This document shows, piece by piece, positions 48,074-50,386 of a stretch of 64,000 bases of DNA. The stretch covers positions 1,866,246 through 1,930,245 of the forward strand of contig CP070761.1 in NCBI GenBank assembly GCA_020348985.1, written 5' to 3'. Under the pieces are notes generated by a model. That model saw only the letters and a list, made by a program, of their open reading frames with translations, was not told where the DNA came from and did not search any database. How positions within the stretch are numbered: the first letter of the stretch is position 1; each line of letters starts with the position of its first letter. Source of the DNA: Candidatus Thorarchaeota archaeon (GTDB lineage Archaea > Asgardarchaeota > Thorarchaeia > Thorarchaeales > Thorarchaeaceae). The position numbers were made by a program, and so were the translations under genes.

Positions 48074-50386
48074 ATGGACACTGACTTGCAATCATACACA
48101 CTTCCAGTCAGTGCTATCCGGAGTGTCCGAACCCCTAGCGGACTCACCATGGAGCAGGCTGTGCCAGATACTTATGTGCTCGCCAACTTCGTTCTTAGAG
48201 CTCTATTGGAACGGAATGATCGCGAGATCGAGTTCATCGTGAAGGCTTACCTTCCAGTAAGTGTGATCAACTACTTCGACGCAAGAAAAGTCCTATTGGT
48301 TGAGCCCTTAGGATTCACCTCGACATCCTTCAAACTCTTGACCCTCTCGGATTTCAGGAAAACCCAAGACAGTGTTTCTGAGATCAAGTCCCCCTCCATT
48401 TTGGTCCAAGTCATGCGGGAATTGGCCGATGCAGTTTCCTCAAGTCCTAAACCCAAACCTATGACTTATCCTGGCCTCATTTCTGACCCGCTCGCAACTA
48501 GATTGCTGCAGCTGGAAACGTGGCCCACCGTAGAAAGATCAGAACCTCACTCCGTTGAATTACCGGCACTTGTTGAGAAGAAACAGGCTGAGGAAGCGTT
48601 TGACAACCTGAGGATGTCCATCGAAAGCCTGATTTCGGCCCGCAAAACTCTTCCTGAGATTCTCGACGTAGTACGTAAGAAGGTTGACACCTTCCTTGGC
48701 TCAGTAGACACCGATCAGGTTGACACCATTGCTCGACTGGATGCGCGCATAGAGTCTCTCTCTTCCACTATAGATGATTTGAATTCTCGTTATGCTAAGC
48801 TGAAGTCAGCTGGTCAAAAGAAGGAGGCACAGGAAGTCGCTGAGATCATGAAGAAGAGAGAATCCGCCCGGGAAAGAGACAAAGAACGAGTTGCAGAGCT
48901 TGTGTCTTCTCGCGAGTCGCTCCGAAAGGACCTTGCCACAAGTCTGTCCAATCTTGAGAAGAAGATTGCGATGATTCTTCCAGCAATTGAGTCTTCTCTC
49001 AAATTCCTTGACTCCCTGCCAGGTCTGTCCGCATCTTCAGGTCAGTCCTTCAGTTCAACTACACTAATGCTGCCGTTCTTCGTTGTTGGCTTCTCAGCTA
49101 GGGGCAAACTCACCATCTCTGTTTATCCTCCGTCCAAGCTAGAACAAACCAGCGAAAAACTAGGCAGGCGAGTCTCATTCATTGATTCTCTTGAAGTTGC
49201 TTCTCCTAGCGTCGAGACAGTCAGGCAATGGCTCTCAGAAGTGCTACGAGATGACCTCACTCTGAGGGAGTTTCTGAGAGAGTCATCGCCAGAGCACAAT
49301 CTCCTGGCGGTCAAGACAACTAGACGAATGATTAGATCTGGGGCTGAATCACTAGTCTCAGAGGGTTTGCTGAAAGAATCAACACTGTCAGATATCGATT
49401 CGCTCCTTGAGGGTGTGCCTGAGCGTGAGGTTCGAATGAAGGTACCTCGGAAGAAAATCAAGGATGAGAATGCGTGTAACGTTCGATTCCTCGCAACTGA
49501 CGAAACAGGAGCGCCTGTTGAATCTGCTAGGCTTGAGATCGGAAATGTGCGTCTTCGCACAGATTCTCAGGGAATGATCAGGGTACTTCTTCCTCTCGGA
49601 TATCATGAAGGACTCATTTCGCACGAGGATTTCGAAAGATTATCTGTGGACTTCACACTTGACTCAATTGACGATGTTGTCATCCCAGTTGTCCTGAGAC
49701 GCCTACCTTCCGAAGACCGATTAGACAGACAACTCGACCGTCTGATTGAGCGTGCCGACCGCATTGACAAGATTCGTGAGAGGCTGTGGGAGGCCTTCCA
49801 AAAACAGGGTGAGACTCTGGTAACGATTCCAGCTTACAGAGCCTCTTTGTCGGAACTTCTTAGCGAGCTTGGATTTGAACCGGAGGCTTGGATTGCCAAA
49901 GCCTCCAAGAAGAAGGGCATGGTTCGGAGATTGCTCAAGCGTGATGATAGAAAGGCCGGCCTGCGCAGAGACATCCTGAGGCTTGCAGAAGAGTCGCGTC
50001 AGGCAGGCGGACTAATGCTAATGTCCGAGTTTCTCGTTAGACTTGACGATCTAGGTTGGGATGCAGGGCATGAGGAAGTCTATGGAATTCTTGACGACAT
50101 GTCTAGGGAAGGGCTCATAGAAGGAATAGAATCCATTAACGGAGGTGCACGTTTAGTGAAGTTCATCCCTGTTGAACTCACGGATGATCCACAGAAGCTA
50201 TTGGGCTTGGCGACTGAGAAAGACGGTCGACTTACAATCGAGGCAGTCGTAGTTGAGCTGGGGTGGCCAGAGGAACGTGTGGAGATAGCCATGAATTTAC
50301 TCGTTGAGAAGGGAGTAGCAAAGATCCAAGAGAGCTACTCAACAAGTACTGTCTACTGGTTCCCCGGTCTCCGCAGAAAGAAATAA
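48074..50386 (+). CDS. Coiled-coil + PEGA/carboxypeptidase-regulatory-like + Vps22/36 (EAP30, ESCRT-II) fusion protein
   Basis: C-terminal ~200 aa AFQKQGETLVTIPAYRASLSELLSELGFEP...GGLM...PVELTDD...LGWPEERV...YWFPGL matches Vps22/Snf8. DETGAPVESARLEIG...TDSQG is a beta-sandwich. Confidence 0.78.
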   Translation: MDTDLQSYTLPVSAIRSVRTPSGLTMEQAVPDTYVLANFVLRALLERNDREIEFIVKAYLPVSVINYFDARKVLLVEPLGFTSTSFKLLTLSDFRKTQDSVSEIKSPSILVQVMRELADAVSSSPKPKPMTYPGLISDPLATRLLQLETWPTVERSEPHSVELPALVEKKQAEEAFDNLRMSIESLISARKTLPEILDVVRKKVDTFLGSVDTDQVDTIARLDARIESLSSTIDDLNSRYAKLKSAGQKKEAQEVAEIMKKRESARERDKERVAELVSSRESLRKDLATSLSNLEKKIAMILPAIESSLKFLDSLPGLSASSGQSFSSTTLMLPFFVVGFSARGKLTISVYPPSKLEQTSEKLGRRVSFIDSLEVASPSVETVRQWLSEVLRDDLTLREFLRESSPEHNLLAVKTTRRMIRSGAESLVSEGLLKESTLSDIDSLLEGVPEREVRMKVPRKKIKDENACNVRFLATDETGAPVESARLEIGNVRLRTDSQGMIRVLLPLGYHEGLISHEDFERLSVDFTLDSIDDVVIPVVLRRLPSEDRLDRQLDRLIERADRIDKIRERLWEAFQKQGETLVTIPAYRASLSELLSELGFEPEAWIAKASKKKGMVRRLLKRDDRKAGLRRDILRLAEESRQAGGLMLMSEFLVRLDDLGWDAGHEEVYGILDDMSREGLIEGIESINGGARLVKFIPVELTDDPQKLLGLATEKDGRLTIEAVVVELGWPEERVEIAMNLLVEKGVAKIQESYSTSTVYWFPGLRRKK

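Follow-up and report, generated by a model that had tools for sequence, protein, structure and literature searches.

A long Vps22 paralogue with a head-plus-hairpin arm in Thorarchaeota

[quoted passage not shown] We analysed a 64,000-nucleotide stretch of the genome of a Candidatus Thorarchaeota archaeon (assembly GCA_020348985.1, contig CP070761.1, positions 1,866,246 to 1,930,245 of the forward strand; hereafter the window), in which the gene at 48074..50386 (+) encodes a 770-aa protein that carries a Vps22 unit behind a large N-terminal scaffold. This protein, here called the long form or long Vps22, belongs to a conserved single-copy family that is unnamed in the databases and that adds a new N-terminal arm to the known Vps22 unit. 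We favour, at an even chance, the reading that it is an accessory ESCRT-II-type adaptor, Vps36-like in role.

Architecture of the long form

The gene was taken from the list of open reading frames (ORFs) and its translation. The single unbroken ORF (48059-50386, +; 775 aa, P0001) has an in-frame ATG at 48059, and the ATG at 48074 is its second Met. The preliminary description had placed the gene start at 48074, and this is borne out by the homologue alignments, since the start is shared by the consensus of 120 homologues and by the database copy P0002 (770 aa). Residue numbers below follow P0001, with the first Met at 48059. The G+C level is uniform over the region, and a 145-aa reverse-strand ORF within the gene was set aside because the frame in which it lies is conserved in over 150 homologues.

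AlphaFold2 modelling of the full protein with 120 homologues gave a confident model, with a mean predicted local distance difference test score (pLDDT) of 84.9 and a predicted template modelling score (pTM) of 0.63, and a second model of residues 1-465 (pLDDT 88.3) was consistent with it. The models confirmed a large N-terminal scaffold ahead of the Vps22 module, which begins with a globular α/β head. Part A of the head (residues 11-170; 48089..48568, +) was modelled with pLDDT mostly 80-95 and has the order βββ-α-βββ-αα-β-α, and part B (residues 334-451; 49058..49411, +) consists of β-strands at 334-380 and four helices at 383-451. An antiparallel coiled-coil hairpin (residues 174-319; 48578..49015, +) is inserted in the head, with helices of 77 and 66 residues (174-250 and 254-319) and a conserved patch in which R226, L227, R230 and L234 of helix 1 face R267, A270, R273 and D274 of helix 2. 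A coiled coil is thus present, as the preliminary description had it, but it is only this 146-aa hairpin and not a module of about 450 aa. A basic, flexible linker of low confidence (residues 452-471; 49412..49471, +; pLDDT below 50 at 462-467) then leads to a seven-stranded transthyretin-like β-sandwich (residues 472-546; 49472..49696, +), whose match to a CarboxypepD_reg/PEGA family hidden Markov model (HMM) agrees with the CarboxypepD_reg/PEGA-like sandwich read earlier at about 49470-49700. Ig-like and PEGA domains are recurrent in archaeal ESCRT systems (PMC10936438), a point in favour of the adaptor reading.

The C-terminal unit (residues 551-771) folds as a helical N-domain followed by tandem winged helices, WH1 and WH2. 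It consists of a long helix (551-589) and the Vps22 N-terminal helical domain (590-649), together at 49709..50005 (+) and aligning with human SNF8 residues 7-93; of WH1 (residues 650-703; 50006..50167, +); and of an inter-domain linker with the conserved consensus FVPVALTDDPQ and WH2 (residues 704-771; 50168..50371, +), with YWFPGL at the C-terminus. In a phmmer search of all PDB chains, human SNF8 (3cuq_A) was the top match (E 3.6e-7; residues 560-771 against chain positions 7-215 of 234 aa), followed by yeast Vps22 (1u5t_A, E 3.4e-5); with the family profile as query, SNF8 improved to E 5.8e-10, and Vps36 was absent from that search at E up to 1. Foldseek with the AlphaFold2 model retrieved the same Vps22 folds, 3cuq_A at E 8.5e-7 and 1u5t_A at E 1.5e-6, as well as Vps36 at E 3e-4. 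The earlier alignment by eye of the C-terminal 200 or so residues with Vps22/Snf8, including the N-terminal helical part, therefore stands in both the sequence and the structure searches. The Pfam family EAP30 (PF04157) gave a divided answer: the protein itself scored 13.1 bits (E 0.082, profile positions 34-215 of 219), below the gathering threshold of 26.8 bits, but orthologous long forms score above it (68.8 bits in G112, 42.6 in G063, 29.0 in G131 and 26.9 in G075, and 70 and 38.7 bits in P0140 and P0136, respectively). The preliminary description had raised the prospect of a generic winged helix-turn-helix without any EAP30 match; with Vps22 on top in the PDB and orthologues passing EAP30, the C-terminus is instead a true Vps22-family module.

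We also considered that the protein might be a winged-helix DNA-binding transcription regulator, as weak TrmB and RTP Pfam matches and the JGI label 'PadR family transcriptional regulator' on the family fragment P0291 could suggest. This is very improbable, given that the best matches are to Vps22 over about 210 residues and take in the helical domain, which is not a winged helix, that orthologues pass the EAP30 cut-off, and that the PadR label belongs to a 270-aa contig-end fragment. Set against the Vps22 family (PF04157; PDB 3CUQ_A, 2ZME_A, 1U5T_A), the long form has the same three-part unit, at 22-24% identity to SNF8, and keeps the motifs P.EL..D, GW..ER and YWFPGL of canonical Asgard and human Vps22, but it has three times the length, some 550 residues more at the N-terminus.

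The 152 full-length relatives (730-850 aa, 39-44% identity) are all annotated as 'hypothetical', and nearly all are labelled Thorarchaeota. Identity to homologues is 60-69% in the C-terminal unit as against 28-34% in the N-terminal 555 residues, or, by domain, 54-72% in the Vps22 domains as against 23-40% in those of the scaffold. No stretch of the family is more conserved than the helical domain (590-649), whose mean majority frequency is 0.86, and 40 of the 68 columns at residues 704-771 are at least 90% conserved. These alignments show that purifying selection on the Vps22 unit is strong, and its far higher conservation than that of the scaffold fits conserved partners.

We then compared the N-terminal module with known proteins. 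A Foldseek search of the PDB with the model of residues 1-465 gave nothing below E 1e-3 for the head and helical-hairpin analogues only; ESM-Atlas feature searches with residues 1-172 and 8-170 gave scores below 0.9 and no named family; Pfam scans of the module in 62 members returned coiled-coil noise only (V-SNARE, ATG14, ATG17); and no paralogue of the module was found in its own genome. With the neighbouring 370-aa protein, hhalign showed no relationship (Prob 0.1). By shape, an ESM-Atlas search found the head-plus-hairpin in five uncharacterised archaeal families, namely the long-Vps22 family itself and one family each from Bathyarchaeota (541 aa; TM-scores 0.61 and 0.54), Thorarchaeota (552 aa, including a Zn ribbon), Thermoproteota (381 aa) and Promethearchaeota (529 aa). 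Furthermore, homology to stand-alone Bathyarchaeota proteins of 537 and 545 aa was confirmed by hhalign with the family profile (Prob 97% and E 1e-11 over residues about 56-448), and the match stops at about residue 448, the end of the module. Since the match to stand-alone proteins ends at the module boundary, the module is an independent evolutionary unit, self-contained and standing alone in other archaea, that has been fused to Vps22.

The stand-alone proteins (537-545 aa in Bathyarchaeota, 381 aa in Thermoproteota, 529 aa and, with the Zn ribbon, 552 aa in Asgard archaea), all 'hypothetical', correspond, by homology or by equivalent structure, to residues about 10-450 of the long form (Atlas TM-scores by query 0.52-0.61), but have neither the β-sandwich nor the Vps22 unit. 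The neighbourhoods of the Bathyarchaeota genes are unrelated and gave no functional clue. A further likeness, compared by description only, is to the euryarchaeal arCOG09748 of minimal ESCRT loci, which has a helical N-domain, a coiled coil, a novel globular domain and a C-terminal winged helix similar to Vps22 WH2 (PMC10936438). In both, a Vps22-like winged helix comes after a coiled coil and a globular domain that is uncharacterised; unlike the long form, arCOG09748 has a single winged helix and is encoded beside Vps4 and ESCRT-III.

The ESCRT-locus Vps22 and the distribution of the family

The assembly is a single contig of 3.16 Mb, and its canonical ESCRT locus (C1:2.969-2.973 Mb), with Vps22 (254 aa), Vps25, Vps4 and Snf7, lies 1.06 Mb from the long form at 1.914 Mb, which is therefore a second Vps22 of the genome. 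BLASTP aligned the C-terminus of the long form with the canonical copy over 128 aa of the winged helices (35% identity, E 5e-21), with YWFPGLR in common. An HMM of the long-form Vps22 unit matched the 238-257-aa Vps22 proteins of twelve other Asgard families at 74-126 bits and near full length (HMM positions 3-16 to 203-220), whereas the Vps22 of the Thorarchaeota ESCRT locus was matched only in its two winged helices, from position 73, at about 85 bits. This locus copy ('Vps22#', asCOG cog.002769, PMC10936438) comes from the same genome and clade and shares the WH1-WH2 tandem and YWFPGLR, but it adjoins Vps25 and Vps4 and has an N-terminal steadiness box (PMC10936438, Table S3) where the long form has the Vps22 helical domain. 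The steadiness box and the partial HMM match of the locus copy leave the long form as the only full-length match to the Vps22 model in the sampled Thorarchaeota genomes. A search among shorter proteins for a stand-alone close relative of the Vps22 unit gave contig-end fragments of the long family only.

A maximum-likelihood EAP30 tree, built from sequences other than eukaryotic ones, places the long forms within the clade of Asgard Vps22 in general, where three clades form an unresolved polytomy: the Thorarchaeota long forms, well supported (98/96) and on a long branch, the locus copies of Thorarchaeota (100/99) and the Asgardarchaeia-type long forms (100/100). The tree does not resolve whether the two groups of long forms make up one clade (44/70), nor whether the long form is sister to the canonical copy of Thorarchaeota. 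On the simplest reading of these sequences, Vps22 would have been duplicated, with one copy gaining the steadiness box and the other keeping the helical domain and gaining the N-terminal arm.

Asgard Vps22, including that of Thorarchaeota, self-interacts in two-hybrid and biochemical assays (PMC9192718), and the long-form unit resembles Asgard Vps22 over its full length, with the helical domain as its most conserved region. From these points it could be argued that the long form is a self-sufficient alternative ESCRT-II, a homodimer through the helical domain and WH1 that recruits two Vps25 with no need of the steadiness-box Vps22, so that two parallel complexes with different inputs would coexist. 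Our results do not discriminate between such a homodimer and a heterodimer that includes the canonical copy. We regard this arrangement as rather improbable, and it is a variant of the adaptor reading, not a contradiction of it.

Next, a census of the architecture in Asgard genomes, as proposed in the preliminary description, was taken in 301 genomes sampled evenly across the phylum. A profile of the N-module matched 66 of the 76 genomes of f1, the family of the source genome, as well as the one genome each of f2, a sister family in the same order, and of f6, which belongs to another lineage; in these three families the full architecture is present. It did not find the long form in 27 other families, including four that are represented by 68, 28, 21 and 19 genomes. 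Distant full-length members carry the NCBI labels Asgardarchaeia or Asgardarchaeum. In the f6 genome (G004, 93% complete), the long form is a 797-aa frame (E 5e-26 to the N-module profile), and the genome yielded no EAP30 match at E up to 1e-4; as no canonical Vps22 was found in it, the long form may be the sole Vps22-like protein there.

Ubiquitin (PF00240) was detected in 204 of the 301 genomes, whereas the three carrier families gave no match (0/76 in f1, 0/1 in f2 and 0/1 in f6), in line with the report that Thorarchaeota have ESCRT-I, -II and -III parts and lack ubiquitin (PMC9192718). As for the literature, the long-form architecture is not described in PMC10936438, PMC9192718 or PMC10307638, although the supplement of PMC10936438 was covered only in part, so that its absence from the literature is not proven; in the tables of that paper that we examined, the Thorarchaeota entries comprise the steadiness-box Vps22 and a BAR-SB protein only.

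The gene neighbourhood

Three genes precede the long Vps22 on the opposite strand. They encode a 370-aa protein (46383-47495, -) with no significant Pfam family and one weak winged-helix-type match (E 0.008); an Arf-family GTPase (45535-46386, -), whose start overlaps the stop of the upstream 370-aa gene by 4 nt, with a 120-aa N-terminal extension ahead of the GTPase domain assigned by Pfam (residues 121-267); and a 189-aa coiled-coil, Pro/Ala-rich protein (44819-45388, -) with a weak CdvA/steadiness-box-like match. On the other side, 45 bp downstream, lies a gene for a YdjM-family membrane protein (50431..51246, +; Pfam YdjM, E 4.5e-8), which is possibly in the same operon; the long Vps22-YdjM arrangement is also found in L009, L010 and L011. 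The order in Thorarchaeota is an eS25-like gene, a 189-211-aa coiled-coil protein (-), the Arf-like GTPase (-), a 367-371-aa protein (-), the long Vps22 (+), YdjM (+) and GluRS (+); because housekeeping genes are included, this conserved block may be plain collinearity. In f2, where the other flanks differ, the long Vps22 still has orthologues of both the GTPase (59% identity, E 8e-125) and the CdvA/steadiness-box-like protein with its coiled coil (E 1e-31) at a distance of no more than about 3 kb. The argument for a functional link between the long Vps22 and a small-GTPase module is weak to moderate.

In f2 and in the Asgardarchaeia-type contigs, the long Vps22 is followed by a co-directional pair of genes (L046:9421-13529, L045:9374-13421 and L047:9347-13418), the first of 207-224 aa (224 aa in f2) with no Pfam family and the second of 1139-1144 aa (1139 aa in f2) with a marginal GCS2 (carboxylate-amine ligase) match over about 35 residues. 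The source genome has a counterpart of the large gene (1143 aa; C1:2407638-2411036, L048:1498-4929, -; 33% identity, E 1.6e-187), 0.5 Mb from the long Vps22. Contig L047, of the Asgardarchaeia type, has a 356-aa gene next to its Arf GTPase, and no relation of this gene to the 370-aa protein was detected.

No ESCRT Pfam family was found among the neighbours of the long form in five lineages, where we looked for Vps25, Vps4, ESCRT-III and ESCRT-I; Asgard vps22 genes are typically associated with genes of these kinds. The main, if somewhat unlikely, alternative is co-option of the Vps22 unit for a role outside ESCRT, with the protein serving as a scaffold of another pathway and its winged helices merely as a protein-binding module. 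The candidate pathways would be a trafficking or signalling module regulated by small GTPases, with the Arf-like GTPase and the 370-aa partner, or one that involves the proteins of roughly 220 aa and 1139 aa from the downstream genes of other lineages. The missing ESCRT neighbours speak for co-option, as do the N-extended GTPase and the coiled-coil protein within about 3 kb in both f1 and f2 despite their differing flanks, and the 207-224-aa and 1139-1144-aa genes that follow the long Vps22 co-directionally in f2 and the Asgardarchaeia-type contigs; the long branch between long forms and canonical Vps22 also leaves room for new partners. However, the canonical motifs P.EL..D, GW..ER and YWFPGL are retained in what is the most constrained part of the protein, the synteny of the whole region in f1 takes in housekeeping genes, and the 1143-aa gene stands 0.5 Mb away in the source genome. 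Moreover, small GTPases are very numerous in Asgard genomes, which makes their proximity weak evidence.

Several further observations concern these neighbours. The N-terminal extension of the GTPase starts IRSVYILGEQGNIVYSKDY and is, by eye, a candidate longin/σ-adaptin-like domain; Thorarchaeota genomes from which the long Vps22 has been lost still retain the GTPase and 370-aa pair. In the 189-aa protein, a Pro/Ala/Glu-rich linker joins two coiled coils, one N-terminal and one C-terminal; the protein has weak matches to CdvA (E 9e-4) and GvpG, and its orthologue in L046 (266 aa) matches CdvA at E 5.9e-5. PMC10936438 reads the Pfam family CdvA as 'CdvA coiled coil or steadiness box', and the 189-aa protein is a possible ESCRT-I-like steadiness-box protein. 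In the sister family, the product of the gene divergent from the long Vps22 (L046:6060-6830, -) is 255 aa long and gives a weak match of the ANCHR-like B-box zinc-binding type (E 7e-4), and BLASTP found no counterpart of it in the 189-aa protein of the window. Elsewhere in the window, a 306-aa protein (43722-44642, +) has an eS25 winged helix (E 1.4e-8), a long C-terminal extension and a weak EAP30 WH2-type match (E 0.006) that is probably generic winged-helix similarity, and a 1093-aa STAND-type protein (54264-57545, +) combines a weak AAA_16/ATPase_2-type N-terminus with many TPR repeats.

A possible accessory ESCRT-II-type adaptor

The data show plainly which domains are present and that they are fused, that the long form is a paralogue of the Vps22 at the ESCRT locus, that its Vps22 unit is under strong purifying selection, and in which lineages the family occurs. 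Upon this we build the reading introduced at the outset, namely an accessory ESCRT-II-type adaptor that is Vps36-like in role, which has about as much chance of being right as of being wrong. According to this reading, an Asgard Vps22 copy would have kept the whole unit, with the helical domain and two winged helices, and would have been fused behind two modules, the transthyretin-like β-sandwich and a pre-existing archaeal head-plus-hairpin module. Judged from its conserved sequence, the Vps22 unit would dock on the ESCRT machinery, through WH2 to Vps25, through the helical domain and WH1 to the steadiness-box Vps22, or both, and the head, hairpin and sandwich may form a stalk and recognition platform for cargo, a membrane site or a regulator. 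By analogy, the long form would then play the part of Vps36 in ESCRT-II in lineages in which no ubiquitin gene was found. As the family was found only in Asgard lineages of this kind, it may be an alternative adaptor arm for the membrane-remodelling machinery.

Vps36 is the eukaryotic EAP30 paralogue with an N-terminal GLUE adaptor. The design in common is a second EAP30 paralogue per genome that carries extra N-terminal modules and stands beside a shorter paralogue. Nevertheless, the long form is nearer to Vps22 than to Vps36 by sequence and by structure (Foldseek E 8.5e-7 versus 3e-4), and the place of the GLUE/PH adaptor is taken by the head, hairpin and β-sandwich; no GLUE/PH domain (in Pfam scans) or NZF domain was detected in the long form. 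The likeness to Vps36 would be an independent, analogous invention and not orthology.

Several points weigh against an ESCRT adaptor. In contrast to the Asgard Vps22 orthologues of 238-257 aa, the long form is encoded apart from Vps25, Vps4 and ESCRT-III, lying 1.06 Mb from the ESCRT locus in its own genome and having no ESCRT neighbour in any lineage examined, and its own EAP30 score (13.1 bits) is under the threshold. ESCRT partner binding is something that we infer from sequence. A complex prediction of the Vps22 unit with residues 70-241 of the Thorarchaeota Vps25, run without controls, scored 0.21 and 0.18, where the mark is 0.32, and speaks neither for nor against binding. The adaptor role is also a guess because the head fold has no characterised relative. 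The coincidence of the long form with missing ubiquitin amounts to two or three independent lineages at most, and five Thorarchaeota genomes that are 95-99% complete have neither ubiquitin nor the long form, with the canonical Vps22 only. In two of these five, the long form is cleanly missing at the syntenic site between conserved neighbours: in L059 (G005:C33:9500-20500), a 475-bp gap separates YdjM and a 379-aa gene, and in L060 (G027:C20:65400-76400), a 1-kb gap contains neither YdjM nor the long gene. Both sites look like cases of clean, lineage-specific loss. The existence of nearly complete ubiquitin-less genomes without the long form means that it is accessory, not essential, and not an obligatory substitute for ubiquitin-based recruitment.

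A more specific proposal, which we hold to be unlikely as it stands, is that ubiquitin-less Asgard lineages independently built an asymmetric ESCRT-II, comparable to that of eukaryotes with its Vps22 and Vps36, in which the long Vps22 and the steadiness-box Vps22 would form a heterodimer and the arm would recognise cargo or membrane independently of ubiquitin. The neighbouring longin-type Arf-like GTPase module may then regulate the recognition arm. If true, this asymmetric complex would be a second, non-ubiquitin entry route into the ESCRT pathway.

Whichever partners it has, the long form defines a new archaeal head-plus-hairpin module that is common to the Asgard long form and to TACK archaea. 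Thorarchaeota are a puzzling case, having ESCRT-I, -II and -III parts without ubiquitin (PMC9192718), and the only complete Vps22 unit in the sampled genomes of this group, mounted on a 550-residue arm, is a concrete candidate for ubiquitin-free ESCRT targeting. It also offers a natural parallel to the division into Vps22 and Vps36 by which the ESCRT-II of eukaryotes was shaped.

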